A stretch of DNA of 64,000 bases from a virus, in the IMG/VR virus record IMGVR_UViG_3300045988_179268, positions 96,001-160,000 of that record. The stretch is one strand, 5' to 3'. The notes under the pieces were generated by a model. It was not told the origin of the DNA and did no database searches. It was given only the letters and a program-made list of their open reading frames with translations. This document shows, piece after piece, positions 46,662-62,911 of the stretch. Position numbers and translations under genes: made by a program. Within the stretch, counting starts at the first letter, position 1. Every line of letters starts with the position of its first letter.

Positions 46662-46675
46662 CACTGTCTTGTGTT

Positions 46676-48161: not shown

Positions 48162-48172
48162 TGTGGTATAAT
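48162..48172 (+). promoter_or_regulatory. extended -10 promoter (tgTGgTATAAT)
   Basis: tgtggtataat lies 70 nt before ATG 48242 (RBS GAGGAG). Confidence 0.55.
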
Positions 48173-48241
48173 TAAATTGTTCAATCGGGGGTGTTTCCCG
48201 TAAAGCCAATGACCAATACGCATGTTTGAGGAGTCACACAA

Positions 48242-48640
48242 ATGTCCTGCGCTGTTAAGATGATGAAGCCCTACACTTACACCACCCTTCCCTTTACCGC
48301 TACCAGCACTGCCCACATGGGCGATGTTGAGTCATGGGTTTCTTCTAAGATGACTCTTGAGTTCGTATCCTGGGATTCAGGTGAGGAGGCTCACGTTACT
48401 TATGGGGTGCAGGCGACTAACCCGGCTAAAGAGCCTGGCGATGACGGCTGGTTGATTGGTCGTGTGACTATGAGTGTTGATGTTGAGGGTGAGGTTGCTC
48501 TGAGTGATGCTCTTATGCGTCGTATGGTGGAAGACTTTAAGGTTGTGATGCGTAATCGTGTAGCGCAGGGTCAGGCTCTTGTGGACTTTGAGGGTGGGGT
48601 TCCGGTCTTTAAGCAGACTGTGACGTTCGCTACCGTGTAG
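48242..48640 (+). CDS. small acidic hypothetical protein
   Basis: 132-aa ORF with promoter, RBS and a downstream hairpin (aaagccg..cggcttt). Confidence 0.6.
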   Translation: MSCAVKMMKPYTYTTLPFTATSTAHMGDVESWVSSKMTLEFVSWDSGEEAHVTYGVQATNPAKEPGDDGWLIGRVTMSVDVEGEVALSDALMRRMVEDFKVVMRNRVAQGQALVDFEGGVPVFKQTVTFATV

Positions 48641-48855: not shown

Positions 48856-49032
48856 ATGGGTGTTGTGAAGGGTGGTCGCTCTTTGGTTCGTGAGTCTGGT
48901 GTGGTTCGTTGGGATGATGGTTCGCGCCTGTTTGGTGAACGGTTTGCGAGCGCCAACTATAAGGTCACTATCGGGCGCGTTAATGTTGGTACTGCTGAGG
49001 TTGGCATTGGGTCGTCTGAGGGGCGGAGGTAA
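48856..49032 (+). CDS. small hypothetical protein (58 aa)
   Basis: ATG after GAAAGGAAGG. Its stop lies next to the GGAGG of the following small gene. A micro-ORF (48813-48893) overlaps it in another frame. Confidence 0.4.
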   Translation: MGVVKGGRSLVRESGVVRWDDGSRLFGERFASANYKVTIGRVNVGTAEVGIGSSEGRR

Positions 49033-49035
49033 GGC

Positions 49036-49209
49036 GTGCCTATTTGGGTTATTGCTTTAGAATCCTATGTCCTAATTATGGTTCTAGTTTTCAGTCTTGG
49101 CATTGCTCTTGATGTGAACATGAGGAGTCTTGTTGAGATGCTTGCAGTGATTCATATACCTGTTCTTATTGCCGCCGGTGTAGCTCACTTTGGGCTACAC
49201 ATAATCTAG
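49036..49209 (+). CDS. 57-aa small membrane protein (below track cutoff)
   Basis: GTG 6 nt after GGAGG (49025-49029). VPIWVIALESYVLIMVLVFSLGIAL...IPVLIAAGVAHFGLHII. Confidence 0.45.
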   Translation: MPIWVIALESYVLIMVLVFSLGIALDVNMRSLVEMLAVIHIPVLIAAGVAHFGLHII

Positions 49210-49247
49210 GTGACTTTCGATTGCCACTTATAACAGGAAGGTGAAGT

Positions 49248-49409
49248 ATGGGTCTGCTGATTATTGTCTTGGTTTTTGTTTTGATTGAGGCTTTACTTTC
49301 TCTTGTTGGGGTGTGTCTTGGTTGGGGTGCCTATGAGTACTTAATGATACATGTTGTACTGTATGGCGTTACGTTTGTTGTGGCAGGTTCCAGTATGACC
49401 TCTGTGTAG
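49248..49409 (+). CDS. 53-aa small membrane protein (below track cutoff)
   Basis: ATG after AGGAAGG. MGLLIIVLVFVLIEALLSLVGVCLGWG...VVLYGVTFVVAG. Confidence 0.45.
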   Translation: MGLLIIVLVFVLIEALLSLVGVCLGWGAYEYLMIHVVLYGVTFVVAGSSMTSV

Positions 49410-49503
49410 ATGACGGCTAGGTGTTGTACGTGGTGTGCGGCTAACTAATATAGTTCTTTGTGTCCCACTTCACACATATTTGGCTTGCATACAGTTTTAA
49501 ATC

Positions 49504-49514
49504 TGTGATAGACT
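49504..49514 (+). promoter_or_regulatory. extended -10 promoter (tgTGaTAGACT), with TTGCAT -35 at 18-nt spacing
   Basis: aatctgtgatagactata is nearly identical to the boxes at 55920 and 57231. Confidence 0.55.
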
Positions 49515-49586
49515 ATAAATATAAGGCAAGCGGGAAAGAAACCCGAAAGCCACGAAGCATCAACCAACTACCGAAGGGTGGCAACC

Positions 49587-49901
49587 ATGTCCGTCGCAAC
49601 TTTCAACTTTGAGCTTTCCGCTGAGGAACTTGCAGAGCTTGCACCCCACGCAAACTACGAGTACTCCAACTGCTGTGAAGTCAAGGTAGACCACATCGAC
49701 ATTAACGACTACGATAACACCATCACCCTTACTCTAGGAAATGACCACGGTGCGCATGAGGTGGATGCTACCCCTGAGTCTGCTGAGGACTTCGAGGCAC
49801 TTACCTCTCGTTACGAGGGAGACGAGATTGCCGGGTACCGTCTCGACAAGGCTATCTACAGCCTCGACCCCGAAGATGGAGAGGTTGAAATCAACATCTA
49901 A
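49587..49901 (+). CDS. small highly acidic protein
   Basis: ATG 49587 follows GAAGGG + 8 nt. By my count 26 D/E versus 4 K/R in 104 aa. Confidence 0.65.
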   Translation: MSVATFNFELSAEELAELAPHANYEYSNCCEVKVDHIDINDYDNTITLTLGNDHGAHEVDATPESAEDFEALTSRYEGDEIAGYRLDKAIYSLDPEDGEVEINI

Positions 49902-49908
49902 ACATTGA

Positions 49909-49945
49909 CAAACCCCCTATGGAGTTAGTACCCATAGGGGGTTTG
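49909..49945 (+). terminator. rho-independent terminator
   Basis: caaaccccctatgg / ccatagggggtttg. Confidence 0.8.
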
Positions 49946-50024
49946 TGTTATATGCTTGTCTTAGCGGTGGAACGGCATTCTCTGTGGCATAGTTAGATAA
50001 TCTTCATAGTGAACCTTTGGCGCG

Positions 50025-50033
50025 TGTTACAAT
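50025..50033 (+). promoter_or_regulatory. extended -10 promoter (TGtTACAAT)
   Basis: gtgttacaat lies 68 nt before ATG 50101. Confidence 0.45.
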
Positions 50034-50100
50034 TGTTGTGTATGGGTTGGGTAGTCCGCCTAGCCGCATAATCCACATTTATTAGCTGGAGAGGGATACT

Positions 50101-50853
50101 ATGACTGAGAATAGCCACAAGGAAGCGCCCGCATGGGTGGAGGTCACTCCTGATACTGTTACTGCGCCCGCTGACTTGTTGCGTGTGGCTAACGTTGTGT
50201 TCGACCTGTTGAGGGCGTTTCGTGTTGATGAAGACCCGGACTTGAAGGAAGCTATTGAGAGGGCTTTAGATTGGGATACGAACGCGGCTAAGGGTAAGGT
50301 GCCCTATCATATTCTGGAGCCTCTAAAGGCTTTGCCTAGCCGTGAGGTCATTGATGCCCGCATTGACTATTATAGGCATGAGATGCAGGCGGGGCGTGTA
50401 GATAACATGTGCGGTATTCCTGCGTTCCTTAGTGGTTCTATGCTTACGGCTGATGAGGTGTCCCGCAATACTGGAATCCCGGAAGATGAGCTTCTACGTG
50501 AAGCGGATTCGTTTGCTTCACGGTTTGTTACAGACCTTGAGTATGAGGATGCTGATGGTAATGAGTCGCCGCGTTTCTACTCAGAACAATTTAAGCCGGA
50601 TGGGACGCTTGATGACCGTAAAGCTGACTATATTTCTGCGGCTGGGAATTACTTTAACGATGCGCCGGGGTTCTTCCATGACGTGTTTTCACCTCAGCTG
50701 ATTTTGGGTTATGTTAGCCCGGTGGCTTATGCCGCTTTGAGCGATGAGCATCTGGAGGCGTGCAAAGAGACGAACCGCCTGTACATGGAGTGCTGGGACA
50801 TCACCGCTGACGACGACATCGAAGACCTAATGTTCCCCTACGAAGAAGAGTAG
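50101..50853 (+). CDS. hypothetical acidic protein, family 2 (HTH-like plus FQF/SP module)
   Basis: LTADEVSRNTGIPEDELLREA, PRFYSEQFKPDG and ILGYVSPVAYAAL parallel 39788..40588. Confidence 0.6.
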   Translation: MTENSHKEAPAWVEVTPDTVTAPADLLRVANVVFDLLRAFRVDEDPDLKEAIERALDWDTNAAKGKVPYHILEPLKALPSREVIDARIDYYRHEMQAGRVDNMCGIPAFLSGSMLTADEVSRNTGIPEDELLREADSFASRFVTDLEYEDADGNESPRFYSEQFKPDGTLDDRKADYISAAGNYFNDAPGFFHDVFSPQLILGYVSPVAYAALSDEHLEACKETNRLYMECWDITADDDIEDLMFPYEEE

Positions 50854-50899
50854 CTGTTTGCACCCTGCATCAACATTCCAATATAGAGTGACTTTAAGG

Positions 50900-50908
50900 T
50901 GTTATACT
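50900..50908 (+). promoter_or_regulatory. extended -10 promoter (TGtTATACT)
   Basis: ggtgttatact lies 40 nt before ATG 50948. Confidence 0.4.
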
Positions 50909-50947
50909 GGTTAGCACGTTTCTCGATATTGCTAGGAGTGGCACGTA

Positions 50948-51142
50948 ATGACTTTCCATATTGATAGTTCGGTACTGTCCGTGCTTTGTGCATGTTCCCT
51001 TGTGCTTTGCCTTTTTGGATTTTTTCGCGCAATGTCTAAGTTTATAGGCGCTACGGATGCGCGTGAAGCTCCCGTTTGGGTTCTTTGGATGGGTGTTTGC
51101 GCGGTTGGTGTTATCCTATCTGTGATGTCCATGATTCTCTAG
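50948..51142 (+). CDS. small membrane protein (64 aa)
   Basis: GGAG RBS. Two hydrophobic helices. Confidence 0.45.
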   Translation: MTFHIDSSVLSVLCACSLVLCLFGFFRAMSKFIGATDAREAPVWVLWMGVCAVGVILSVMSMIL

Positions 51143-51338
51143 CGCATGGGGTTATATCCGCCATCTTTGGGGGCTAATGTTGCCGTGTCTACTTTCACCA
51201 CTGTGGCGGCTATCTATGTGGTGATGTGGTAAAGAAAAGAGTAGAACGGCGTTAAGTTCACACGTTACACCACAGCTACATTCACCTCTTCAAGCCATTG
51301 CCGCCGTTTATCCGCTAATTTCTTTTTAGGAGTAATCT

Positions 51339-51629
51339 ATGTACATAAATATGGATGCCGTGGTTCATTCAGCAATTTTCTTAGCGTTTGCAGGAGTTGG
51401 TGCAATGATGGTGTACCAGGGGTTTGTGACTATCGGGCAAGCTAAGAATAAATTCCAAGCCTTTATAGGGTTCCTTACTGGTATTGTCGGTATCTTCACG
51501 GTGTGTTGGGGTTTGGCGAACGCATTTCCGCATAACCCGAACGCGGGTACACTTCCAGCTAGTACAGGTGACACTAGTTCAGTGAATACTAATAACAGCG
51601 GTGGCGGCGACATCATTAATGGGTTGTAG
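51339..51629 (+). CDS. small membrane protein (96 aa)
   Basis: AGGAG RBS. 3 hydrophobic segments and a G/N/S-rich tail. Confidence 0.5.
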   Translation: MYINMDAVVHSAIFLAFAGVGAMMVYQGFVTIGQAKNKFQAFIGFLTGIVGIFTVCWGLANAFPHNPNAGTLPASTGDTSSVNTNNSGGGDIINGL

Positions 51630-51635
51630 TGCGCC

Positions 51636-51857
51636 ATGTTGGAGGTAGCTGTTACGGGGGCTAATATTGCTTCCGTGTTCCATGTGGTATTTTTCTTGCT
51701 AATTGCGGGCATTGGTCTGTTGTTGGTGATGTTGGCTGTCGGGGTTACTTCATCTCCTCTTGATACTGCAATGGACGCTATTCTAGGTGTAGCTATTGGC
51801 GTTATTGGGATAAGCATGTTCTGCTTTGGGGTGCAGATGGTGTTTCCGCTTAATTAG
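51636..51857 (+). CDS. small membrane protein (73 aa)
   Basis: Starts 7 nt after the previous stop. 2-3 TM helices. Confidence 0.5.
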   Translation: MLEVAVTGANIASVFHVVFFLLIAGIGLLLVMLAVGVTSSPLDTAMDAILGVAIGVIGISMFCFGVQMVFPLN

Positions 51858-52022
51858 AGTTTGGGCACGATTCCCGCTAGTGGGGGGGGTGGTAGTTCGG
51901 TGAGTGTTGAGTTGATGGTGGTTGCTTCGCAATGGTTTGCAACTTATTTGTTGCTTGACAGCGCCACGGCATCCTGTATATTCTAGATACTAATCATTGT
52001 TTTCTATAGGAGTGTGCTTATC

Positions 52023-52445
52023 ATGTTTTTTAGTTCTGTCGCCACTGACTCTTTGTTGCTTTTTGCGATGTTTGGTAGCTTTTTCACGGTATTACCTGGA
52101 ATTGTTCTACAGCTGTTCGCGCTAATGGATGAAGATGAGGAGCCATTCGGTAAGCGACAGTATTTCAACTTGGCAAAAATGACGTTTATGACCGGGGTGC
52201 TGTTTGCTGGCATTGCGGTCTGTATTCATATCTTTGCCCCGGATAATGTGGTTCCTAATAGAAGCTCTGTGCCTGAGTTGTGGGCGATGTTGTGGGTCGC
52301 GCCGGTCATGTCCCTTGTATTATGCTTTGTCACTACTGGGCTAACTGCTTTGGTCGCGGTTCTGTGGCGTGTTCTTGATGCGCTGTTGAAGTACCCTGTC
52401 GGTTGGTGGTGCGCACTAATGGGGCGTACTGGCGACAGTGAATAG
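52023..52445 (+). CDS. membrane protein (140 aa)
   Basis: ATG 52023 is 10 nt after TAGGAG. 4 TM helices. Confidence 0.55.
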   Translation: MFFSSVATDSLLLFAMFGSFFTVLPGIVLQLFALMDEDEEPFGKRQYFNLAKMTFMTGVLFAGIAVCIHIFAPDNVVPNRSSVPELWAMLWVAPVMSLVLCFVTTGLTALVAVLWRVLDALLKYPVGWWCALMGRTGDSE

Positions 52446-52478
52446 TTGCATAACTCGCGATTGATGTCGCGGTAAATT

Positions 52479-52489
52479 TGTGGTACACT
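52479..52489 (+). promoter_or_regulatory. extended -10 promoter (tgTGgTACACT), with TTGATG -35 at 17-nt spacing
   Basis: tttgtggtacact lies 62 nt before ATG 52551. Confidence 0.55.
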
Positions 52490-52550
52490 ATTTTTAAATA
52501 CGAGGCGTTAAGTATCACGCCCAACACATCAACCCCTAAGGGAGTCCCCC

Positions 52551-52946
52551 ATGCGTTTCACGTCTAACTTCAAGTTCAAGGCTGTCACTCCTAGTCCCGA
52601 TAAGCTTGCCGACTTTTGGTGGCATGACGAGTTCGCCGTCGAGAATGTCGAGATTAAGCAGGCGAACGACCCGCAGGAACAAGGCAACTATGTCGTAAAG
52701 TTCACTATTGAAGAGCCTTTCTATCTCCCCTCTAATGATGAGGATGATGACTATGTGCCGGATAACTGGGAACCTTCCAAGATGACTTTTATGCAGTGCG
52801 AACCCGTTCCCTACGGTTTGGCTGTACGCATTAAGGATGAAATTATCCGAATGACGGCAAACGGATATATTGACGCGCCTGACGTTATTAATGGCATGGA
52901 TATGTACGACTTGGAGATTGCCTACGGCGGCATCTCTGGCATGTAG
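52551..52946 (+). CDS. small acidic protein
   Basis: 131 aa. D/E-rich (..PSNDEDDDYVPDNWEP..). Confidence 0.6.
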   Translation: MRFTSNFKFKAVTPSPDKLADFWWHDEFAVENVEIKQANDPQEQGNYVVKFTIEEPFYLPSNDEDDDYVPDNWEPSKMTFMQCEPVPYGLAVRIKDEIIRMTANGYIDAPDVINGMDMYDLEIAYGGISGM

Positions 52947-52995
52947 CATCCCGTGGGCACCCAATACCCAACCAACACCCCTAGAAGGAGGAATC

Positions 52996-54063
52996 ATGGA
53001 TATTTCTGCTGTAAATCGAGGCGACATCCTCATTGATGAACCATACGTCTACCGCGTCCTGACTGTAACGACTGATGGTAAGGCGCGACTACTGCGACCT
53101 AATGGCGACATTGGAACCGCAACCATTACCCCTGATGAGCCTTGGGAGCATGTGCCTAATGCCACGGCTGAGGATTGGCTGTTGTACTGCGCTAAGAGTC
53201 GCGCCGCCCAGCAAATCATCACGAACCTTAGCGGTACTGACCTTAAAGACCCTATTAGCGCATACAACGCCGAACATGGGGCGCTAGGCGTGGAAGTAGG
53301 TCTACAGCTGACCCAACAGCAGAAGCAGGCTATCTGCAAGCGCCTAGACGAATACGCTGAGGCGGTAAGTGAGGCGCGCGCCTGGGTTGCAAAGCAACGC
53401 ATCCGATACAGTGAAGCGACCGCAACGCTGTTTGAGAAGATGCCCGAAGATACCTACAGTATCGCGGAGCCTCGTTACTTCGAGTCACTAACCCACCCTC
53501 AGGTGGAATTGAGGGGTGCAACTCTCGCTGTCGGGCGCGTCTACCGATTCAACTGCAAGAAGAGCAGTAACTCTGCTGGGCGTTCGCGAGGCTATTTCCG
53601 TGTAGACAGCATCAAGGGGAAGAAGGCACATGTAACCCTAGATGACGGTACTACCGGCTACATGTGCATTTCAGACTGGAACGCATGGGAATACCCCCTA
53701 CAGCTAGTAACCAGCACCGAAACCTACGACTGCTCAAACAGGTTCTCGCCTGTAAATGTAGATGACCCCACGGAGGGTTTCGCATACGCCAAATATCTGG
53801 GAACGATGCGTCACCTCGGCGTGGAAGCCGCTAAAGCATACCAGAACCTATTTGAGAAGCCGGAACGTCCCGCAATGCTAACCGGACTGTTCCGTAAAGA
53901 TTTCTACTCGCCTCTCTACACGGGTTCACGCCGCAACCCCAACAACATTCAGGAAGCATACAAGGCGGCTAACCAGGAAATTGAGCAGGTCTATGACCGC
54001 CTCGCAGATACTGAACACGAACTGCGTGACACGCGGGAACTTGTGAGCTTCCTAACAGTGTGA
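52996..54063 (+). CDS. family-1 paralog
   Basis: ATG 52996 follows GGAGG; the tracked start 52870 overlaps the previous gene. EARAWVAKQR and GRVYRFN..GYFRV motifs are shared with 46831..47916. Confidence 0.65.
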   Translation: MDISAVNRGDILIDEPYVYRVLTVTTDGKARLLRPNGDIGTATITPDEPWEHVPNATAEDWLLYCAKSRAAQQIITNLSGTDLKDPISAYNAEHGALGVEVGLQLTQQQKQAICKRLDEYAEAVSEARAWVAKQRIRYSEATATLFEKMPEDTYSIAEPRYFESLTHPQVELRGATLAVGRVYRFNCKKSSNSAGRSRGYFRVDSIKGKKAHVTLDDGTTGYMCISDWNAWEYPLQLVTSTETYDCSNRFSPVNVDDPTEGFAYAKYLGTMRHLGVEAAKAYQNLFEKPERPAMLTGLFRKDFYSPLYTGSRRNPNNIQEAYKAANQEIEQVYDRLADTEHELRDTRELVSFLTV

Positions 54064-54135
54064 ACCGAAGCGAAAAAGTTGCTTTTAGTATCAACGCCTG
54101 ATATACTGTAAGCATCAGACGCACCATAGTGTGAA

Positions 54136-54178
54136 ATACCCCCAAGCCTATAGGGACAGGTTTGGGGGTATTTTTTTT
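54136..54178 (+). terminator. strong rho-independent terminator
   Basis: atacccccaa / ttgggggtat followed by T8. Confidence 0.85.
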
Positions 54179-54652
54179 GTTTGCTTGCAGGTTTCCCAGA
54201 GGTTTGCGACAGTAAGCAACGATGCAACGTGTCGCATTTATCCTCATCTTATTTTCTTAGTTTGCCAATTGTCGCCGTCTCGCAACACTATTATTGCAGT
54301 CGGTTACTCTATAACTCCCTTATGTTGCTTGTAGGTACTGGCTTCTACGCGGTTTTCATGCCAGGTGTTTGCCCCAGGCATTGTTCAGGTGAATACCCCA
54401 GGCATCACGCCCTAGAATTGTGCAGGCGTAGTTCGCGGTTAGTTCATAGTTTATGTCAAGCAATATTCATCTCACCCCGCAAAGGCGACCTTTTGAGCTG
54501 TTCTAGATTGCGATATACGGGTTACATGCATTGCTGAAATGGTGCATGTGAAATATACTCCCGCTATCCCCATGCTGGTTGCCTAGCACTCATAATGGCA
54601 TGGCGTTACCAATTGCTGATAGTGGGAACAATAGAATAGGAGGAACCTACAT

Positions 54653-55831
54653 ATGGTTTCTATTAAATCGTTTGTTGCGCGTGCAAGCGCAGGTGTTCGC
54701 TCTGACATTCTTTCCCTGAGTAACGAGTGTAAGATGCTACTCCCGGATGGGGCTACTTTACGTAGTGCTAAGTACGAGATTTTGACTACCGATAAGCATA
54801 GTGTCGCTATTGGCGACACAAGGTATTATCGTATTCGTGCTTTGCGTAGGATTGAGCGTCCGTTTGGGTTGCCGCCGGTTGAGCCGGGTGACCTTGGCGG
54901 GTATGTTACTTTTGATACTGGAAACTCGCTTTCTAACGAAGGTGATTGCTGGGTCGCTGATGAAGCGTTTGTGTCAGGTTATGTTTCGGGTGATTCTCAG
55001 GTGACTGGTCACGCCCATGTTGGTTACCCATCTACAGTTAGCGGTAAGTCGCTCATTTCTGATTTTGCGCAGGTGATTGACGGTGCCCATGTGGATGAAT
55101 CGTTAGTTACTGGTTTTGCACAGGTGGTTGGTCGTAATTTTGAGGGGCTATACCTTGAAGAGCCTTCGCTTGAACTTCTTGGTGAACAGACGCAGGTGGT
55201 CAATCACTCGTGGGTTTCGGGTCGTGCCCGTGTTTCTGATGGTGCGTATGTGCATAGGTTTAGTTCTATTAAGGGTTCATCTGTTGTGTCTGGTCCCATC
55301 TTTTTGACGAATGGCTCAAGTGTTGCGGGTGTTGTGCTTACAAGCGAGTGTGACATGGTGCTTATTCGTGGTGAGTTTATTGATGAGCCTATGAACATGT
55401 GGGGTTGCCCGAAGGGTATTGTTGTCCACGAGGGTGATGGTAAGATTGAGACTTTGCAGGCGCTTGGTGACATTGACCGTGGAGCTGTCTTACCTTACTT
55501 TGGCGGGGACTATTTACGTTGTGCTAGGACTCCTAAAGAGATAGGTAAGATTTACGGCATTGAGGAACTTGAGTTTCACGATACTGGCAATGGGACATGG
55601 GCAAGCTCTTTTGACAAGAGTATCGAAGCGCCACGCAAGATACTCGTTTCTTCTGCGACTGGCATCGAGTATTTCGAGCCTGCATCCAAAGAGGAAAAGG
55701 CAGAGTATCGCGATAAGATGGTCGAGAAAGCTGAAAGTATGCGTGAGGTTCTTAAAGGGCAACGAGACATAAGGGATACTATTCAGTCTGATGAACGAGC
55801 GGCTTGGCACGCCGAACACCCGGAAGAGTAA
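54653..55831 (+). CDS. beta-helix-like repeat protein with acidic C-terminal coiled coil
   Basis: AGGAGG RBS. Degenerate repeats of the type VSG.S.V.G.A.V (GYVSGDSQVTGHAHVGYPSTVSGKSLISDFAQVIDGAHV..). Confidence 0.6.
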   Translation: MVSIKSFVARASAGVRSDILSLSNECKMLLPDGATLRSAKYEILTTDKHSVAIGDTRYYRIRALRRIERPFGLPPVEPGDLGGYVTFDTGNSLSNEGDCWVADEAFVSGYVSGDSQVTGHAHVGYPSTVSGKSLISDFAQVIDGAHVDESLVTGFAQVVGRNFEGLYLEEPSLELLGEQTQVVNHSWVSGRARVSDGAYVHRFSSIKGSSVVSGPIFLTNGSSVAGVVLTSECDMVLIRGEFIDEPMNMWGCPKGIVVHEGDGKIETLQALGDIDRGAVLPYFGGDYLRCARTPKEIGKIYGIEELEFHDTGNGTWASSFDKSIEAPRKILVSSATGIEYFEPASKEEKAEYRDKMVEKAESMREVLKGQRDIRDTIQSDERAAWHAEHPEE

Positions 55832-55919
55832 GGAATACTAGCATATAAGAGAAGAATGCATCTATGGTAGTATGGATGTTCCACCTCGCCTATATTTGCT
55901 TTGCGCATGGTTTAGAATC

Positions 55920-55930
55920 TGTGATAGACT
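55920..55930 (+). promoter_or_regulatory. extended -10 promoter (tgTGaTAGACT), with TTGCGC -35 at 18-nt spacing
   Basis: aatctgtgatagactata is the same 18-mer as at 49501-49518. Confidence 0.55.
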
Positions 55931-56001
55931 ATAGGTGTAGCAAGGAAGATGATTTCCAATGAAAAGCTACAGCCACTTTCCTAGACTGAGAGGTTGTCGT
56001 T

Positions 56002-56325
56002 ATGCAGACCATTTACAACACTGACCGCCACTTCATTTCCTCTGTGGACATTGCACTTACTGAGGGTGCCATTACTAACGTGGATGAACTGATTGCCGGT
56101 ATTAAGGGCTTCAAGCGTGCCGCCGATGGCTCTGTTGTCTACGGTCCGTATATTGTTCAGAGTGACACGGTGCGCGTTGAGCTTGATGCAGGTATCGAGG
56201 CAACCCTTATTCTTAGCGAGAATGCTGTAGAGATTTCTGCTATTGACCTCGAAGATGGATTTGCTGTTGATATGGTAACGACTCCTGAGGCGAAGGAGTT
56301 GATGGAGTACTTCGAAACTATCTAG
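56002..56325 (+). CDS. small acidic protein
   Basis: 107 aa. ~20 D/E versus 6 K/R by my count. RBS GAGAGG. Confidence 0.6.
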   Translation: MQTIYNTDRHFISSVDIALTEGAITNVDELIAGIKGFKRAADGSVVYGPYIVQSDTVRVELDAGIEATLILSENAVEISAIDLEDGFAVDMVTTPEAKELMEYFETI

Positions 56326-56337
56326 TGCTTAAATACA

Positions 56338-56378
56338 TAAACCCCCTTATTGCAGAGGGCTTGCAACGAGGGGGTTTA
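56338..56378 (+). terminator. rho-independent terminator
   Basis: taaaccccct / agggggttta with an inner ttgca / tgcaa pair. Confidence 0.75.
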
Positions 56379-56659
56379 TGTGCGCCTACTACGGCGTATG
56401 CTCAGTGAATTACTATAAATGGACGTGTTACCCACTATGGATTTTCGCACTACACATGCGGCGTATCATTGGCAAAGCTTCATCGCCTGTAACCTATTGA
56501 AAAAAGGGGGTGTACAAGAAGCTGACATTATGCTATGATTGTAACAACGTTGAATCCTGGGGAGGATGGGACGTTGAAGAGCCTTAGGGTGGGTACCCTA
56601 AGGCTCTTCTTTTTGCCCACTCAGGCATAGTAAGTCAATGTTCGCTACATGTTTATTTC

Positions 56660-56670
56660 TGTGGTACACT
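56660..56670 (+). promoter_or_regulatory. extended -10 promoter (tgTGgTACACT)
   Basis: ttctgtggtacact. TTCGCT -35 at 18-nt spacing. Confidence 0.5.
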
Positions 56671-56707
56671 TGGTTTAATAAGTTTTCTACCGAAAGGGGT
56701 TCACATC

Positions 56708-57136
56708 ATGGCACAGGTTATCAACATCATCAACTTCATGGGCCGCCAGCTTCTTGAAGAGGTCGAGGAAGGTCGCTTCAAGCTTGGTGAAATGACTGAG
56801 CTTAACCGTCAGGCAACCCTCAATGCACTTACTGAGAACGAAATTGCTAAGGTTGAGGCGATTGAGGAAAATGAAGATGGCACCTTCCTGCTGGCTCTGG
56901 AAGGGCGAGAGATTAGCGCGTTGATGGGCAACTACTTTGCAGACTATGGACCCCTAGTTGCAACCATCAGGGAGCCTAGTAACTTCCTCTTTAAGGCTAA
57001 TGACTATCTTCTCTTCGCTACCGTAAAGGCTGACGGTGAGCTTGCCGATAAGTTCCGGGAGATGGTAGAAAGCGATTGGTCTTACTCAACCTACGTGGAT
57101 GAGTTCGACGACCGGGAGGGCACCCTTACCATCTAA
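56708..57136 (+). CDS. small acidic protein
   Basis: 142 aa. RBS GAAAGG. E/D-rich. Confidence 0.6.
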   Translation: MAQVINIINFMGRQLLEEVEEGRFKLGEMTELNRQATLNALTENEIAKVEAIEENEDGTFLLALEGREISALMGNYFADYGPLVATIREPSNFLFKANDYLLFATVKADGELADKFREMVESDWSYSTYVDEFDDREGTLTI

Positions 57137-57145
57137 CGACATGCT

Positions 57146-57178
57146 GAAAGCCCCTCAGTAATAAGCTGAGGGGCTTTC
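57146..57178 (+). terminator. rho-independent terminator
   Basis: gaaagcccctcag / ctgaggggctttc. Confidence 0.8.
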
Positions 57179-57230
57179 TCTATTCCTTAAAGGTGTGACA
57201 GATTCCGTTTCGGGTGTATGACGCTAAATC

Positions 57231-57241
57231 TGTGATAGAAT
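57231..57241 (+). promoter_or_regulatory. extended -10 promoter (tgTGaTAGAAT)
   Basis: aatctgtgatagaatata. Confidence 0.5.
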
Positions 57242-57307
57242 ATATGTGTAGGGCAAGCAGATTGGAAACCTGATGTCCATTTAAACCCACTGAAAGGATT
57301 GTTAATC

Positions 57308-57700
57308 ATGGCAACCCCGTTCCTAACCTTTGCAAACGAACAGAATTTGACTATCGAGTTCATGTTCGACTCTTGGGAGAAACTTCGTTACGTTGCGGAA
57401 AATAAGCCGCCGGTCTTACTCAAAGGTTATATGCACACTGAATCGGAAGACCACGGCGGCGGATTCGTAAGCCATATCGCCACAATCGACCCCGACGTTG
57501 CATTTATTACCGGCGACAACAAAGTTAGCTACGGCACTGCCGTAAAGAAGAAGACTAATCATTTCATGATGCACCTTTTAGCCGGTGGCTCAGCCGCAAA
57601 GCTCTACATTAAGGATTACACCATTGAAGTGGACGAAGAAGAGGGCGGTATTACACTAAGGTTCACTGAGCTTTTCCAGGAAAACCCTTACGAGTGCTAG
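57308..57700 (+). CDS. small hypothetical protein
   Basis: ATG 57308 follows GAAAGG + 10 nt. 130 aa. Confidence 0.6.
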   Translation: MATPFLTFANEQNLTIEFMFDSWEKLRYVAENKPPVLLKGYMHTESEDHGGGFVSHIATIDPDVAFITGDNKVSYGTAVKKKTNHFMMHLLAGGSAAKLYIKDYTIEVDEEEGGITLRFTELFQENPYEC

Positions 57701-57759
57701 ATTGATAGTAATATAGGTTCAGCTTGTGGGTTTTATGGCAATTAGCGGGATGTGTAGCA

Positions 57760-57939
57760 ATGCGGAAGAAGTACGTTATAGCTTCCCTGTCGGTATTCTT
57801 ACTCGCTGGCGCTTATTCTGGGCTATGGGTTGCAAGCGTTTCTGACGGATATGTTCGCCTGTGGTGGTTCGCTCTTTCGGTAGTAATGGGGAGTATTGGC
57901 GGTATATTTTCCGTGTGGTCAGATTCTCTACGCAGGTAG
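57760..57939 (+). CDS. small membrane protein (59 aa)
   Basis: MRKKYVIASLSVFLLAGAYSGLWV...WWFALSVVMGSIGGIF. The tracked start 57724 is less likely. Confidence 0.45.
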   Translation: MRKKYVIASLSVFLLAGAYSGLWVASVSDGYVRLWWFALSVVMGSIGGIFSVWSDSLRR

Positions 57940-58022
57940 TTGGCTTACTTGCGCAACGGTCACCATAAAAGGCATCTACTTTCGATGTAGTAGATGCCCT
58001 TGCCTGCATTTTGGAGTTAATT

Positions 58023-58223
58023 ATGATGTTCTTAAAAGCTGTCGTAGCTGTCATTCCATTCATCATTTCGGTGTTTATGGGGATAGGCGGTGCCCTCATC
58101 ATTGAGGAATGCCAGGACAAGGGCAAACCTGGTTCACCTTTGGGGCATATGCTTATAGCGGTGGGCATGATTGGCGTTGTAGTAACACCCGCGTTAGCTA
58201 TCCTATGGTTGCGACATTACTGA
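58023..58223 (+). CDS. small membrane protein (66 aa)
   Basis: ATG after GGAG. Two TM helices flank EECQDKGKPGSP. Confidence 0.45.
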   Translation: MMFLKAVVAVIPFIISVFMGIGGALIIEECQDKGKPGSPLGHMLIAVGMIGVVVTPALAILWLRHY

Positions 58224-58323
58224 GTGTGCGACTACGCAGGCGGCGCATCTGGCTACACACCCTGACCTAACTACCTTACAGTGATGCGGCACATACCGCT
58301 TTAATAATTCCCCCGTTATCGCT

Positions 58324-58334
58324 AGTGGTAGAAT
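58324..58334 (+). promoter_or_regulatory. extended -10 promoter (TGgTAGAAT)
   Basis: agtggtagaat lies 67 nt before ATG 58401. Confidence 0.45.
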
Positions 58335-58400
58335 GGTAGAGATACTATCTGTTCTTGTGGCGCGCAACGTCACACGCAAACTCTCTACAGGAAGGTTCTC

Positions 58401-59264
58401 ATGATTGCCCCATACACGTTCTTAATTCCGCTAGTTGTCGGCGGTATTGGTATCCTCGCCTCAGTCTGGCTATTTAAGACGTTTGTCAGTAATGATGCTG
58501 ACGGCGGCGATTCTCGCCACTGGTGGATGAATTGCACCCATGTAGGTGTCTGGGTCGTACTGCTACTGTCCCTGCTGATTGTTGGTGTGGTAACCAAGCC
58601 TGGAGAGGCGGCATTCGGGAACCTGCTGACTGGTTGGGGTGTTGGAGGGTTTATCGCCCTTGTCGTTAGCGTGCTTCTCCTGATGCTATTTGATGCTTTC
58701 GATGAGGATGACGGGTTGTGGGCTGGTCGTGTGCTTCGCACCTGGTCTACCGTAGGTCTGCTTCTCCTGACGCAAGGCTTGTGGAGTGCTAGTGCTTCAC
58801 CGTCCAGGTTTGGTTCAAACCCGGTGTCGCTAGAGTATGCGGTTGCCGCCGATGGCTCCAAAACATCTGTGGTGTCTGAAAAATATCAGCTAGTGAAAGG
58901 TGAATCTGAGACGTGGGTTTCTGTAGGTAAAGAAGACCGTGGTAGTAAAGAACCTGTTCAGGTATATTCATGGGTTGAGGCTCGTGAACTATCCTCCTCA
59001 GGCGAGGTGCTGGTTGCCTCTAAGGTAATCTATAAGTCGGATGAGGATGAGGTTGCCGTGATTGATGATGTCCCAGCAAACGGCAAAGCCTGGGTTGAGT
59101 ACAGAGACATGTTCTACCTCGCCCCCGCCGGTCTCCTAGATTCTTCCCGCCCAGACCCCCTACAGGGTAAGCTGTGCGTACAGGGTCGAGATAGCGGATG
59201 CGCGGTGAACGCGAAGCCCGCATACAAGAAGATTATGATTCACGTACCAATGGGCGGAAAGTAG
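58401..59264 (+). CDS. membrane protein with C-terminal extracytoplasmic domain
   Basis: 287 aa. 4 N-terminal TM helices, then a soluble beta-rich domain. RBS AGGAAGG. Confidence 0.6.
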   Translation: MIAPYTFLIPLVVGGIGILASVWLFKTFVSNDADGGDSRHWWMNCTHVGVWVVLLLSLLIVGVVTKPGEAAFGNLLTGWGVGGFIALVVSVLLLMLFDAFDEDDGLWAGRVLRTWSTVGLLLLTQGLWSASASPSRFGSNPVSLEYAVAADGSKTSVVSEKYQLVKGESETWVSVGKEDRGSKEPVQVYSWVEARELSSSGEVLVASKVIYKSDEDEVAVIDDVPANGKAWVEYRDMFYLAPAGLLDSSRPDPLQGKLCVQGRDSGCAVNAKPAYKKIMIHVPMGGK

Positions 59265-59363
59265 GGCACTATGGCTAACTTCTTTGTAGGTCTGTTTCTA
59301 CTATTGGTTTTATTGTTCTTCTGATCGCGGACTTTTTGGCTCATTGTTGCCTGGTTCGCAGGA

Positions 59364-59561
59364 ATGTTCTTATGGGTAAGCGCCTTTGGTTATGCCCTAT
59401 CCTTAATGTTTAGTGATTCATCGGCAACCCCGTATGTGTGGGGCGCTATCCTGGGCATACCCCTGTGGTGTATCGGCAGTCTCTTCTACTCGACATTTGA
59501 GTTTTGCGGGGAAAGCCGTGATTCGCAGTGGGAACCACATTACCCACGTTATAGGCGTTGA
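59364..59561 (+). CDS. small membrane protein (65 aa)
   Basis: Two hydrophobic helices. Weak RBS. Confidence 0.4.
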   Translation: MFLWVSAFGYALSLMFSDSSATPYVWGAILGIPLWCIGSLFYSTFEFCGESRDSQWEPHYPRYRR

Positions 59562-59598
59562 GCTGTCGTATGGCTATTCGTTGCTTGGAAAGGTGTAA

Positions 59599-59913
59599 GT
59601 GTTGCCTGATTCACATTTTATACTTAGTGTATTGGCGTTCATCGTGATTGCTTGGGTCTGGAGCACGCTCTGGTTCTCACCCTTTAAAAAAGGTTGGCGC
59701 GGCTTCGTTGAGTGCGCTGGTTGGTCCGGGTTTGCGGCAATGTTCCTGAGCCTCTTTATGCTTTTTGCGGCGCAGATGATAAATCGCCCCATCCGTGATG
59801 GCGAGTTTCTGACTGTAGCTCTGATTGAACTAGTGGTGTTCGTCATATCCACCGTGTGCATATGTATCCCCGATTGGTTGCCTGCCGGTAATGATGTGAA
59901 CGATGCAGAATAG
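59599..59913 (+). CDS. small membrane protein (104 aa)
   Basis: GTG start after GGAAAGG. 3 TM helices. Confidence 0.5.
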   Translation: MLPDSHFILSVLAFIVIAWVWSTLWFSPFKKGWRGFVECAGWSGFAAMFLSLFMLFAAQMINRPIRDGEFLTVALIELVVFVISTVCICIPDWLPAGNDVNDAE

Positions 59914-59975
59914 CGGTATGATAGAAAGCGTAGGGTAACTCTACCTCACTATCTCATTCCATTTAGGAGGCACAT

Positions 59976-60095
59976 ATGGCTTACAATGCTTCACGCGGTT
60001 TCTTGCGTTCTTTCGGAATTTCCACGGCAGGTTATTTTATGGGGTTCGCTTTGGCTGACCTAATTTTCACCTTTATCTCTAGAGGTGGCTTCTAG
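59976..60095 (+). CDS. 39-aa small membrane protein (below track cutoff)
   Basis: ATG 6 nt after AGGAGG. MAYNASRGFLRSFGISTAGYFMGFALADLIFTFISRGGF. Confidence 0.4.
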   Translation: MAYNASRGFLRSFGISTAGYFMGFALADLIFTFISRGGF

Positions 60096-60148
60096 AGGTA
60101 CGAAATAGCCCTGCTGACCAGTGAGTAATTACTGCTCGATACAAGCAC

Positions 60149-60192
60149 GTATTGAATGAAGAGCCTTCTAAGTGTAGAAATGCAGTTAGAAG
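60149..60192 (+). terminator. rho-independent terminator
   Basis: aagagccttctaa / ttagaaggctctt, then tgtgt. Confidence 0.8.
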
Positions 60193-60279
60193 GCTCTTTG
60201 TGTACCTGCCGCTACAGCTGTCCGCGCTTCAACACTGCGTTTCAGTAAGAGCATTAATCCCATAAGCAACCCTGAAATA

Positions 60280-60290
60280 TGTGGTAAACT
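60280..60290 (+). promoter_or_regulatory. extended -10 promoter (tgTGgTAAACT)
   Basis: atatgtggtaaact. Confidence 0.5.
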
Positions 60291-60346
60291 ATGAATAGTC
60301 AATAAGTCCTGTGTTCACAATGACCACCTATAGAAAGGTTGCAAAT

Positions 60347-61120
60347 ATGCCTGTTTCTCCCCGCGATATTATTTATATTCACTCTCCCTTTTACGTTCAC
60401 GCCGTAAAGTCGGAAAAGAATCTTGACGGTGAATTTCTCACCGTGTCCGGTGTAGAATATGATGGCGAATATTGGAGGGACTTTCCGGTTCAGGAAGGCA
60501 ATTATGTCACCCTGGCAGAAAATGCCTCTGAGTGTGATGTTTGCAAGTGGTTTGACTATGCGCACCGCCTCCACAGCATCACCCGCGCTATCTTCGTTCC
60601 CCGCGAAGATGAGGGGGCGGCTTACCGTAACTACTGCCAGAACAGCGATATACCTCGATACCATCTGTGTTTGTCGCTGACTGACCGTAACCCCGCCAAT
60701 ACCGTCTCTAAACTCTTGCTTGATGCTAAGGATGCTCTTGCTGAGGCGCGCGATTGGGTACTGAAAAAGCGCCGCGAGTGTCTAGATGTTTTTGCTGAGC
60801 GCTACGCTGATTATCAGAAAGAACCCTCTGATGAGCCTCTTAATGAGGTGTTAGGTAGTGTCTATGCTGAAATGTTCAGCTTCGGGGGAGGTAAGCCTCT
60901 ATGCCTCCCCTCCCCGGCTGAGGGATACGTTATCTATGGCAAGACCTATGACGAATGCGCCGCCCGGTTGATGGAGGTCACCTTCGAAATGATGTTCGAT
61001 ATTAGTAAGAGCATTAGCTATATCGAGTGGGTGCATAGTGAGCTTGATTCCCTCTATAATGAACTGGCGCGTAAGTTCGACCCTGCCTGCTGGGAAGTAG
61101 TAGAGAAGCTTTCCATCTAA
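60347..61120 (+). CDS. family-1 paralog (short form)
   Basis: ATG 60347 follows GAAAGG + 8 nt. Aligns end to end with 46831..47916, apart from a ~130-aa insert present in the latter. Confidence 0.65.
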   Translation: MPVSPRDIIYIHSPFYVHAVKSEKNLDGEFLTVSGVEYDGEYWRDFPVQEGNYVTLAENASECDVCKWFDYAHRLHSITRAIFVPREDEGAAYRNYCQNSDIPRYHLCLSLTDRNPANTVSKLLLDAKDALAEARDWVLKKRRECLDVFAERYADYQKEPSDEPLNEVLGSVYAEMFSFGGGKPLCLPSPAEGYVIYGKTYDECAARLMEVTFEMMFDISKSISYIEWVHSELDSLYNELARKFDPACWEVVEKLSI

Positions 61121-61125
61121 TAATC

Positions 61126-61166
61126 GCGTTGCCTCTTAGCCATATGCTTTAGCTGAGGGGCAACGC
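61126..61166 (+). terminator. hairpin terminator
   Basis: gcgttgcctcttagc / gctgaggggcaacgc (one mismatch, one G-U). Confidence 0.65.
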
Positions 61167-61189
61167 AATGTTTAGATGACGGTGTTGAT

Positions 61190-61438
61190 ATGGATTTTTA
61201 TTTTGCTGAGTTAGGGAACGTACTCCTTGCTGTGCTGGTTGTGGTTGCACTCGCGATACACAGCATCCTCTTTCTGGTAGGATTTGCTACTATTATCGCT
61301 CTGTCTTGCCGTGTGGCAAATTTTATCCTTGTAGACCTTTCACCTGGTAAGCGTAAGCTGGCTTTGACGGCGCTTATTACCGTCGATATTGTTTTAGTTA
61401 TTGCCGCGATAGCGGCGACAGTATCCCTAATGCGTTGA
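61190..61438 (+). CDS. small membrane protein (82 aa)
   Basis: 3 hydrophobic helices. Confidence 0.5.
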   Translation: MDFYFAELGNVLLAVLVVVALAIHSILFLVGFATIIALSCRVANFILVDLSPGKRKLALTALITVDIVLVIAAIAATVSLMR

Positions 61439-61485
61439 GGCGTATCCCTGCTGTACGTCAAGCTTAATTTGTTAGGTAGTGTTTT

Positions 61486-61731
61486 ATGACTCCTTATGCT
61501 TCCTATGTCGCAATGGCTATTATGAACTCTTTGTCACTTGCGATTAATGGCTTTCTCATTGGTTTTGCAGGGTATATTTTAGTTGTGCGTTTTTCAAGTA
61601 GTGTGACTAAGGTGCTTGGATGCTTGCTTATGGTTGGCGGGTTCATTGTGACTCTTCTGGGTATCTTTTTGACGCTTTCGCCGCATGTACCGGAAAGTTC
61701 AACGTTTACAATTTCTGGTTATAGCAAGTAG
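61486..61731 (+). CDS. small membrane protein (81 aa)
   Basis: 3 hydrophobic helices. Confidence 0.5.
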   Translation: MTPYASYVAMAIMNSLSLAINGFLIGFAGYILVVRFSSSVTKVLGCLLMVGGFIVTLLGIFLTLSPHVPESSTFTISGYSK

Positions 61732-61757
61732 TTACAATTTGCGTACTGTCTAAAATA

Positions 61758-61768
61758 TGTGCTACACT
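61758..61768 (+). promoter_or_regulatory. extended -10 promoter (tgTGcTACACT)
   Basis: atgtgctacact lies 75 nt before ATG 61843. Confidence 0.5.
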
Positions 61769-61842
61769 GTAAATGTAGCGAGGAAGAAGGCTTCTAGAAA
61801 AGCTACAGACCATCCACTGCTTACCGAAAGGCTATCTCCATC

Positions 61843-62232
61843 ATGTGTGAATCCATTCTCAACTTCCAGGGCGAAACCCAGACCTTCAAGGCATACATCG
61901 ACCCCATCGACAGCTTCACCGCCGACAGCCTTGCAGGAACCCTTAACGAGAAGGCACGCACCATCTCCATTGCTTGCGGTGAAGGTGACACGGAGGCAAC
62001 CCTCTACTTCTTTGATGAAGACCAGCGCGCAATCGAAGTTGAGGACGAAGACGGCAACATTTCGACCGTAACCGCAACCGTAGACTTGAGCCGCCTCGAA
62101 TACGACGACAAGCTCATCCTACAGCTCATGGGCGCGCGTGACTTGCTGGGCGAACAGGTGTCCATCTTCCAGGGCATTAACTTTATTGATGTGTCCATTG
62201 AGGAGGCTGTGTCTAACCAGCTTGGAATCTAG
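61843..62232 (+). CDS. small acidic protein
   Basis: 129 aa. RBS GAAAGG. D/E-rich (..YFFDEDQRAIEVEDEDGN..). Confidence 0.6.
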   Translation: MCESILNFQGETQTFKAYIDPIDSFTADSLAGTLNEKARTISIACGEGDTEATLYFFDEDQRAIEVEDEDGNISTVTATVDLSRLEYDDKLILQLMGARDLLGEQVSIFQGINFIDVSIEEAVSNQLGI

Positions 62233-62252
62233 CTAACACCCGGAGAGGTGGT

Positions 62253-62282
62253 CGCCCGCGTATCGCCAAGGACACGCGGGCG
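62253..62282 (+). terminator. GC-rich hairpin after 61843..62232
   Basis: cgcccgcgt / acgcgggcg. No U-tract. Confidence 0.5.
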
Positions 62283-62706
62283 GTTCCATACCCAATACAT
62301 CCCAGCAATATGCGGGGCAACTATCTGGTGCCACCATCATTAATTAGGACAAGTTGCTTTTCTATCGGCGTGAAGACATGATGCTCCCTATATTCTTCTT
62401 CCAGATGATAACCCCTTAGTGGATGAGGTCTATACCCCATCTCAGTAAGGGGTTATCTCTATACCGATGTCCCCCGCTAGTCGTTGGCGCGGCTATTGCC
62501 AGGCTGGGTCTGTCTCTAAGGGCGTCCTCACTGAATGATGCGCGCCCTTAAGATTCTCCCCTGAGAGATTGAAGATACTCTCAACAATGAAGCACTGATT
62601 GTCGAGAGTATCGGTGTCACCAAGAAACTTTCCCAGTCCCTTAAGCTGGTTGCCGAATAAGGCTTTCATTGCATCAAGAAGAGCCGCCCATCAGTAAGAG
62701 ATATTG

Positions 62707-62721: not shown

Positions 62722-62911
62722 ACCTCGCCTGTGAGAGATGGGAGAGGTGTTGAATCTAAACGGATAGGTGACTCTGGTTGCCTGTCAAGACCAGGATAGC
62801 TGGCTCAGGTCGGCTTGAGGGTCACCGTTAGGGAGAATCCCTGACCCACCCAGACATGGAAGAGTAGATATATTATCATGTCTTCTCTTGCGTGTTTTGA
62901 GGTGGCTCTAC
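62722..62911 (+). ncRNA. putative structured RNA, copy 1 (~190 nt; family not recognised)
   Basis: No ORF. Conserved blocks shared with 63545-63752. Hairpins supported by compensatory changes between the copies. Confidence 0.5.

Follow-up and report, generated by a model that had tools for sequence, protein, structure and literature searches.

A variable array of autonomous small-protein expression cassettes on a probable Hodor megaplasmid, with a possible role in establishment or conflict

What is a long run of very small genes, many of them with a promoter and a terminator of their own and encoding either strongly acidic or membrane proteins, doing on a large element of the gut? The question is raised by a stretch of 64,000 nucleotides (nt), here called the window, that covers positions 96,001 to 160,000 of the IMG/VR record IMGVR_UViG_3300045988_179268; window position 1 is thus record position 96,001 of the 319,371-bp carrier contig Ga0557493_018680. 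An earlier note, made from the letters alone, had set apart positions 49440-62232 as an early-expressed accessory or anti-defence island similar to a plasmid leading region. The reading that we favour, and hold with about even confidence, is that the locus is a hypervariable array of co-oriented, autonomous sigma-A expression cassettes on a probable Hodor megaplasmid, serving establishment or conflict functions. Its architecture is a matter of observation, and its function is one that we infer.

The array is larger than had been noted, and its orientation is uniform, with all genes on the plus strand. It spans from about 46.2 kb, where its first promoter (46221) precedes the genes 46290-46661, 46831-47916 and 48242-48640, to about 65.8 kb in window coordinates, with two RNA-like elements and at least two further plus-strand genes to the right of 62232; in sister contigs it extends at least 10 kb beyond the 61486 gene. 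The limits 49440 and 62232 are thus arbitrary rather than natural ends. Between them we found 23 plus-strand open reading frames (ORFs), with a few extra mini-ORFs possible, so that the earlier figure of more than 25 genes was slightly high; 17 of the 23 are of 142 amino acids (aa) or fewer, close to the 40-140 aa described for most of them. The products of 11 ORFs are soluble and those of the other 12 have predicted membrane helices. Against orthologues from eight to ten other samples, the pooled ratio of nonsynonymous to synonymous polymorphism (pN/pS) is 0.08-0.50 for all 23 ORFs (acidic proteins 0.08-0.25, small membrane proteins 0.09-0.50) and reaches 0.72 in the flanking genes 46290-49209. 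Because pN/pS is low in every ORF, these are real coding genes under purifying selection. Acidity is specific to the array relative to the backbone of the element: soluble array products have isoelectric points (pI) of 4.1-5.6 as compared with a backbone median of 6.2. Six products carry a net charge of -14 to -32 (pI 4.1-4.3), in agreement with the claim of at least six, and the 26 D/E and 4 K/R residues counted before in the 49587..49901 product match our recount exactly.

Several lines of evidence indicate that the units share a common set of expression signals. In 49440-62232 the strict extended -10 box TGTGnTAnAnT occurs seven times, fewer than the 12 or more genes said to follow it; a count of 12 is obtained with the relaxed form TGnTAnAnT, 11 of whose sites are intergenic. 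These intergenic boxes stand 30-75 nt upstream of a start codon, except that at 54099, which is 546 nt from the next gene. Over the whole window the strict motif is found 13 times where 2.5 are expected, a number reached by 0 of 100 shuffles, and all 13 sites lie on the plus strand and beyond 39 kb. Of the form T(A/G)TGnTAnAnT there are 12 plus-strand sites in 45.5-64 kb, none on either strand of the 37-kb backbone, and none in 22 kb of backbone from the related loci L016 and L017. Most related islands carry it at about 0.6 per kb (0.14 per kb in L003), and its density is comparable even in L002, whose proteins share only 31-87% identity with those of the window. To the right of 45.5 kb, 17 of 18 TG-extended boxes are intergenic, those with a gene after them showing the spacing just described, and many are accompanied by a -35 element like TTGC(G/A). 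A T(A/G)TG just upstream of the -10 is reportedly the "-16 region" of Gram-positive sigma-A promoters that Voskuil and Chambliss described in 1998, which would make these promoters strong but of an ordinary host type. As judged from their sequence, the predicted promoters fit strong, ordinary host sigma-A promoters and appear compatible with a Bacillota host.

The signals downstream of the promoters are equally uniform. The string aatctgtgatagac/a is indeed present at 49501, 55917 and 57228, and four units (49504, 55920, 57231 and 61758) have in common a longer promoter-plus-leader module, whose leader starts with a GTAGC...GCTAC stem in two of the four. A GAAAGG ribosome-binding site (RBS) lies 9-12 nt from the start at 56708, 57308, 60347, 61843, 59599, 46831 and 48856, whereas backbone genes use AAGGAG(AAC), a contrast that the earlier note had drawn correctly. 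Both sequences pair with the 3' end of 16S rRNA; as GAAAGG does so with the outermost bases there, the longer spacing has an unexceptional explanation. All six of the GC-rich hairpins named before were verified, with folding energies of -26.8 to -30.4 kcal/mol and z of -4.3 to -9.9.

The units are swapped, lost and gained whole between related elements. We compared the window with ten other island-carrying loci that are 88-98% identical to it across most units. The three small genes of 48856-49409 and the 49587 cassette are present in some loci and absent from others; relatives carry insertions at unit borders (genes of 298, 93 and 101+67 aa); L008 is without 57437-57991; in four sister loci a copy of the RNA-like element stands in place of 59487-61098, with the genes 59599-61120; and in L006, L007 and L013 a 535-aa TnpB (Cas12f1-like_TNB) lies inside the 56708-57136 cassette, at the equivalent of 56999. 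Most breakpoints are intergenic (49459, 50859, 51164, 52451-52471, 52963-52971, 54163 and 62232). The divergent relative L002 has homologues of eight window genes, at the range of identity given above and in a different order. Breakpoints at unit borders, presence or absence of whole units and the reordering in L002 justify the label of standardised cassettes. An integron-like or recombinase-associated cassette array was considered and rejected, as no recombinase occurs among the 85 protein families described next; the sole repeated element associated with borders in the array is the RNA-like repeat.

The content of the array is entirely new families. Searches with Pfam, PHROGs and PADLOC gave no match for its soluble or membrane proteins save the 54653-55831 product, whose residues 40-230 form a bactofilin-like beta-helix domain; the earlier statement that no family could be recognised thus holds for all but this N-terminal domain. 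The domain family is common in phages and also present in some plasmids, without a known role there, and one relative has further paralogues of the protein. A Pfam scan of the pan-array set, 85 representative families from eleven island loci, matched TnpB and bactofilin only. The absence of PADLOC matches led us to reject a defence island, and PDB sequence searches with array proteins gave no match. Among 5.8 billion, the cluster counts are 8 for 49587, 6 for 52551 and 11 for 50101, and the paralogue family 46831/52996/60347 has 27 representatives among 1.84 billion proteins; all of the clusters are on contigs of the size class of the carrier. In JGI, ENA and Logan assemblies, dozens of contigs, tightly grouped at 290-412 kb, encode island proteins with at least 90% identity, and two relatives are within IMG/VR, one of them a 360,643-bp "viral" contig. 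There was no near-identical DNA in the GenBank phage or PLSDB plasmid collections and no relative among GTDB representative genomes. The families are therefore restricted to this lineage of elements. That the acidic proteins are a single superfamily was rejected since an all-against-all BLAST gave no convincing paralogy among them; it found relatedness only within the 260-360-aa family (E 6e-16) and between two membrane proteins (E 0.006). Two of the at least six acidic proteins were modelled with AlphaFold2. The model of 52551-52946 is a beta-sheet fold with one long helix (predicted local distance difference test, pLDDT, 79; predicted template-modelling score, pTM, 0.74), and that of 49587-49901 is weaker and only moderately confident (pLDDT 63).

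How might such units work? We propose that each would open with a host sigma-A promoter, having a -35 like TTGC and a T(A/G)TG "-16" box directly 5' of the -10, and continue with a leader of about 25-70 nt, which in four units is one common module opening with a short stem-loop. A Shine-Dalgarno sequence predicted to pair with the very 3' end of 16S rRNA would follow, then one small ORF or short operon and a strong terminator hairpin. Host RNA polymerase could read units of this kind from double-stranded DNA without the help of the element. The small acidic proteins may be stoichiometric binders or inhibitors of host or competitor proteins, and the small membrane proteins may act at the envelope, for instance in exclusion or immunity. 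Anti-defence is the leading candidate for any single function.

The carrier is probably a Hodor-type conjugative megaplasmid of human-gut Bacillota. Hodors (Yuan et al., bioRxiv 2026, PMC12934698) are conjugative megaplasmids of gut Bacillota, >300 kb in size and 357 kb on average, with a G+C content of 44.6-47.1%. Their genes include those of a Gram-positive type IV secretion system (T4SS; VirB4, VirD4 and VirB6), an HD relaxase plus helicase, Rep_3 together with ParA, ParB and ParM, sortases and giant surface proteins, and frequently TnpB and Phage_lysozyme2; they are without terminase, are routinely mistaken for viruses, and thousands of Logan assemblies yielded them (PMC12934698). The carrier is like them in size class, in G+C (46-55% in 2-kb windows, mostly 47-52%), in having Phage_lysozyme2 and TnpB and apparent parts of a Gram-positive T4SS, in its filing in a viral database and in its wide Logan/ENA occurrence. 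The genes of its backbone (1-37 kb) are all on the plus strand. Among their products are an SbcC-like ATPase, SSB, DnaB, a RecG-like helicase, a ParA-like AAA_31 protein, a T2SSE ATPase and two proteins of 1,150-1,340 aa, of which one has an M23 peptidase domain. Directly upstream of the gene for an AAA_10/TraG-like (VirB4-like) ATPase is one for a PrgI/TcpE-like membrane protein, a weak match below the Pfam cut-off, and a Phage_lysozyme2 gene lies immediately to the left of the window. Genes for capsid, portal, terminase or tail were found neither in the window nor in the 10 kb to its left. No Rep_3 or tRNA gene was found in the window, in which the ParA-like protein is the sole representative of the Hodor Rep, Par, sortase and giant-surface-protein set; the other members would lie beyond it. 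The main text of the Hodor paper, the only one to describe these elements, is silent on such an array and its promoters, on anti-defence or leading-region content, on a strand-composition switch, and on how Hodors survive host defences (PMC12934698). Two other assignments were rejected: the Inocle giant elements of oral streptococci have a G+C of 24-32% as against about 49% in the window, and an actinobacterial host, considered for the promoter shape and for RecG matches to Corynebacteriales plasmids, was given up since the T(A/G)TG -16 box is the Gram-positive (Bacillota) standard and a Hodor is the better fit. At the right end of the conjugation-like backbone (33307-37191), a ParA/TadZ-like AAA_31 gene lies beside one for a T2SSE (TadA/VirB11-like) ATPase, a pairing that is unusual in a Gram-positive T4SS.

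The array adjoins an origin-like switch in strand composition, with its genes pointing away from the switch. Between 37 and 45.5 kb the plus strand is almost pure A+C, with GC skew to -0.70 and AT skew to +0.84 (extremes at 43-45 kb), and becomes G+T rich over the next stretch, up to 49 kb; the sign change at about 45500 is the minimum of the cumulative GC skew. The bias decays with distance from the switch and is independent of gene direction, because the left arm has genes on both strands. By the usual skew rule the switch looks like a bidirectional replication origin, in which case the island genes would be co-oriented with the fork, although the skew at the switch is far stronger than normal replication skew. 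DNA of such composition leaves hardly any room for palindromes, six-base ones numbering 1.4 per kb at the core. At 45710-46085 there is a 245-bp tandem duplication, each copy of which consists of a 69-nt repeat (97% identical) followed by a AAAATCAACC...GGTTGATTTT hairpin; from its sequence this region is a candidate origin of replication or transfer. Within the A+C arm, on its G+T-rich strand, a 758-aa ORF of nearly only Gly, Val, Trp, Leu, Ser and Phe occupies 43084-45360 on the minus strand, where the JGI gene call is of 745 aa; either a genuine glycine-rich protein or an absence of stop codons from the DNA could account for it.

We then weighed what the array might be for. Leading-region islands of plasmids (Samuel et al., Nature 2024, PMC11541004) adjoin the origin of transfer (oriT), with genes oriented on the transferred strand; they hold known anti-defence, SSB, methyltransferase and toxin-antitoxin genes, carry Frpo-type single-strand promoters and often have umuCD at their boundary. 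That the present array is a true island of this type, the first DNA to enter a recipient and zygotically expressed, with acidic DNA mimics or inhibitors of restriction and CRISPR, strikes us as unlikely. Several points favour the idea: uniform orientation, individually promoted and separately terminated units, small acidic or membrane products, cassette variation, a carrier that is probably conjugative and, adjoining the array, a repeat-and-hairpin region at 45.7-46.1 kb that could be an origin of transfer. Others speak against it. No anti-restriction, anti-CRISPR, SSB, methyltransferase, toxin-antitoxin or umuCD gene occurs among the 85 pan-array families, and the SSB gene of the element is in the backbone, 32 kb away from the array. 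When eight promoter regions were folded as single-stranded DNA, none gave a Frpo-like fold (z -1.19 to +1.22 versus shuffles). The array thus lacks the tested features of membership in leading-region islands, both marker genes and single-strand promoters, and neither of the two modelled acidic proteins has a fold like Ocr, ArdA or anti-CRISPRs. A transfer that started at 45.6-46.2 kb and took the array in first would bring in the sense strand and not the template. In Hodors oriT is upstream of the HD relaxase gene and the replication origin oriV beside the Rep_3 gene (PMC12934698), whereas no relaxase gene was found beside the array and a motif search of the backbone proteins for an HD relaxase gave nothing convincing. 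Palindromes of six bases are found at 6.5 per kb in the backbone (14.8 expected, z -13.7) and at 8.0 per kb in the island (15.2 expected, z -6.1). Being at about half of expectation in both, they suggest that the whole element avoids restriction sites under restriction pressure, which would suit an anti-defence role, and that the island is not special. The idea that DNA entering first might be marked by a stronger shortage of palindromes in the array was rejected, since the backbone is equally poor in them.

Some of the results also weigh against our own reading of a role in establishment or conflict. The hidden Markov model searches for anti-defence families that the earlier note had proposed found no known anti-defence or establishment gene among the 85 pan-array families with Pfam, and none of the array proteins was assigned a known function by Pfam, PHROGs or PADLOC. 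The structure searches gave the same result: the 52551-52946 model had no match by Foldseek to PDB and BFVD (best E 0.25-0.59, template-modelling score <0.33), nor did the 49587-49901 model to PDB (best E 0.12). No oriT was found, the duplication with hairpins at 45.7-46.1 kb having no recognised relaxase beside it. Assignment of the carrier to the Hodors rests on shared features and not on sequence comparison with a named Hodor. Finally, strong promoters of constitutive type are equally expected for immunity or exclusion genes.

This last point bears on a serious rival. In an immunity or exclusion array, acidic proteins would neutralise the basic nuclease-type toxins of competitors and small membrane proteins would protect from membrane-acting bacteriocins or bar related plasmids, with constant expression to the benefit of the host. 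The rival is serious because half of the products, of 39-140 aa, are membrane proteins and because the promoters, each with a terminator at the end of its unit, look constitutive; a cassette repertoire that differs between strains is also to be expected of it. Small acidic proteins are, moreover, typical nuclease inhibitors, as in the colicin and contact-dependent inhibition (CDI) immunity proteins. Against this, no Pfam immunity family, toxin domain or secretion-system marker is found among the 85 families, no cognate toxin genes were seen, and the sole structural hints, matches with E 0.75-1.9 to CdiI or antitoxin chains, lack significance; on balance we consider this rival improbable. We give only a slim chance to a jumbo phage, in which the array would be an early or host-takeover cluster of a 320-kb virus whose first genes are read by host polymerase. 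The filing of relatives as viral genomes in IMG/VR, a related element with tRNA arrays, the wide occurrence of the bactofilin-like family in phages and a layout close to that of the SPO1 host-takeover module and T4 early genes would all be explained, but the virion genes sought in the window and the 10 kb to its left are missing, apparent parts of a Gram-positive conjugation system are present, and mis-calling as viral is just what happens to Hodors, which have Rep, Par and T4SS genes (PMC12934698). Least credible of all, to the point of being dismissed for practical purposes, are spurious ORFs in fast-evolving, intergenic-like filler DNA: although many ORFs are very short and homologues are confined to the lineage, every ORF has a pN/pS below 1, with the acidic ones at the low end, the promoters, RBSs and terminators are conserved, and one protein has a confident predicted fold.

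Comparison with known systems places the array between several of them. Host-takeover clusters of phages (the SPO1 module and the T4 and T5 early genes) consist of small genes with strong host-sigma promoters. The array is like them in its many small, lineage-restricted proteins, strong extended -10 promoters for host sigma, strong RBSs and terminators, and unlike them in that features of plasmids and conjugation mark its carrier, whose visible part is without virion genes. With leading-region islands (PMC11541004) it has in common co-oriented small, often acidic accessory genes, variable content and a probably conjugative carrier; these islands have marker genes and Frpo hairpins, whereas the array has neither and uses ordinary double-strand sigma-A promoters, spans at least 20 kb, is half membrane-protein-coding, consists of new families throughout and has only a candidate for oriT adjacency. 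By analogy, phage host-takeover clusters, the SPO1 module in particular, appear to be the closest analogues in design and plasmid leading-region islands the closest in proposed role. With the DNA mimics ArdA and Ocr, array products share small size and strong negative charge, not sequence or fold. The recombinase-associated acquired interbacterial defence clusters of gut Bacteroidales are arrays of orphan immunity genes on mobile elements; they too have co-oriented small unrelated genes, repeated promoter-bearing intergenic modules and a strain-variable repertoire, but here no recombinase, known immunity family or toxin context was found and the host phylum is another. The pLS20 family of Bacillus are Gram-positive conjugative plasmids reported to have dedicated genes for establishment in a new host (Val-Calvo et al., PMC6294495, PMC8708921); in the array each unit has its own promoter and terminator, and no homology was found.

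Why would the function matter? According to their description, Hodors are present in thousands of human-gut metagenomes, and it is proposed that they move between Bacillota that are only distantly related (PMC12934698). The array comprises about 85 families with no homologue outside the lineage, predicted by design to be highly expressed, conserved in sequence and variable in repertoire; should even a few of them prove to inhibit toxins or defence systems of Gram-positive bacteria from the gut, these inhibitors would belong to new families. If instead they serve immunity or exclusion, the array would bear on how the plasmid benefits or polices its host. The cassette design, consisting of a T(A/G)TG -16 promoter, shared leader and terminator hairpin, is a search rule for more. 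The most far-reaching version of our reading is a new 20-30 kb arsenal of anti-defence or counter-immunity proteins, dozens of them and all new, together with a novel structured RNA in several copies that is found inside tRNA arrays as well. Packaged as interchangeable sigma-A cassettes beside an origin-like locus of extraordinary strand composition, it would help to establish a 350-kb megaplasmid across distant gut Bacillota; we offer it tentatively and think it doubtful.

The RNA-like element, about 180-205 nt long, occurs in multiple copies that share the strand of the genes around them, and each of its copies in the window (62722-62907 and 63545-63748) directly follows a TG-extended -10. 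Five variants give 62 predicted pairs, nine with compensatory changes. A known RNA family was rejected, as Rfam gave no match either at the gathering threshold or at E<=1. Copies also occur in loci L005-L015 and L018-L029, and exact-motif matches in IMG/VR are spread over five contigs, most of them falling on one of 307 kb (at least nine copies) and one of 361 kb (at least four). In L025 they alternate with tRNA genes inside a tRNA array. This locus and L020 are two short loci of a related element (IMGVR_UViG_3300045988_174689, 306,861 bp) whose tRNA arrays are large, numbering 13 tRNAs in one locus and 7 in the other.

Table 1. Units and other features of the array (window coordinates).
Feature	Position	Strand
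TGTG-extended -10, first promoter of the array, just right of the strand-composition switch	46221..46231	+
123-aa acidic protein, pI 4.5, first gene of the array, pN/pS 0.57	46290..46661	+
361-aa protein of a three-copy paralogue family (others 52996-54063, 60347-61120)	46831..47916	+
Promoter 48162 and 132-aa acidic protein 48242-48640; 87% identical copy in a divergent relative	48162..48640	+
Three small genes of 58, 57 and 53 aa, the last two membrane; only in some relatives	48856..49409	+
Complete cassette: promoter 49504, 104-aa protein 49587-49901, hairpin 49908-49946	49504..49946	+
TG-extended promoter 50025 and 250-aa acidic protein, net charge -32	50023..50853	+
Membrane proteins of 64, 96, 73 and 140 aa (50948-51142, 51339-51629, 51636-51857, 52023-52445)	50898..52445	+
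Unit: promoter 52479, 131-aa acidic protein 52551-52946, 355-aa paralogue 52996-54063, hairpin 54133-54174	52479..54174	+
392-aa protein, N-terminal bactofilin-like beta-helix (phrog_5070/7964)	54653..55831	+
Cassette: promoter 55920, 107-aa acidic protein 56002-56325, hairpin 56334-56382	55920..56382	+
Cassette: promoter 56660, 142-aa acidic protein 56708-57136, hairpin 57146-57178	56660..57178	+
Promoter 57231, 130-aa acidic protein 57308-57700, membrane proteins of 59 aa (57760-57939) and 66 aa (58023-58223)	57231..58223	+
Membrane-protein operon (287, 17, 65, 104 and 39 aa), TG-extended promoter 58326 to hairpin 60156-60200	58324..60200	+
Cassette: promoter 60280, 257-aa paralogue (likely start 60347, GAAAGG RBS), hairpin 61126-61166	60280..61166	+
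Two small membrane proteins, 82 and 81 aa	61190..61731	+
Cassette: promoter 61758, 129-aa acidic protein 61843-62232, hairpin ~62248-62284	61758..62290	+
RNA-like structured element, copy 1, promoter-driven	62722..62907	+
RNA-like structured element, copy 2	63545..63748	+

Among the units listed in Table 1, the 250-aa acidic protein of 50023..50853 keeps 56-64% identity in other sub-lineages. Upstream of the bactofilin-like gene is a gene-free stretch of about 480-590 nt (54175-54652 in the window), mostly 91-96% conserved in sister loci. A possible small RNA of about 60 nt lies at 56511-56609, where no ORF exceeds three codons and a perfect 15-bp terminator hairpin comes no more than about 40 nt after a promoter-like TG-extended -10.

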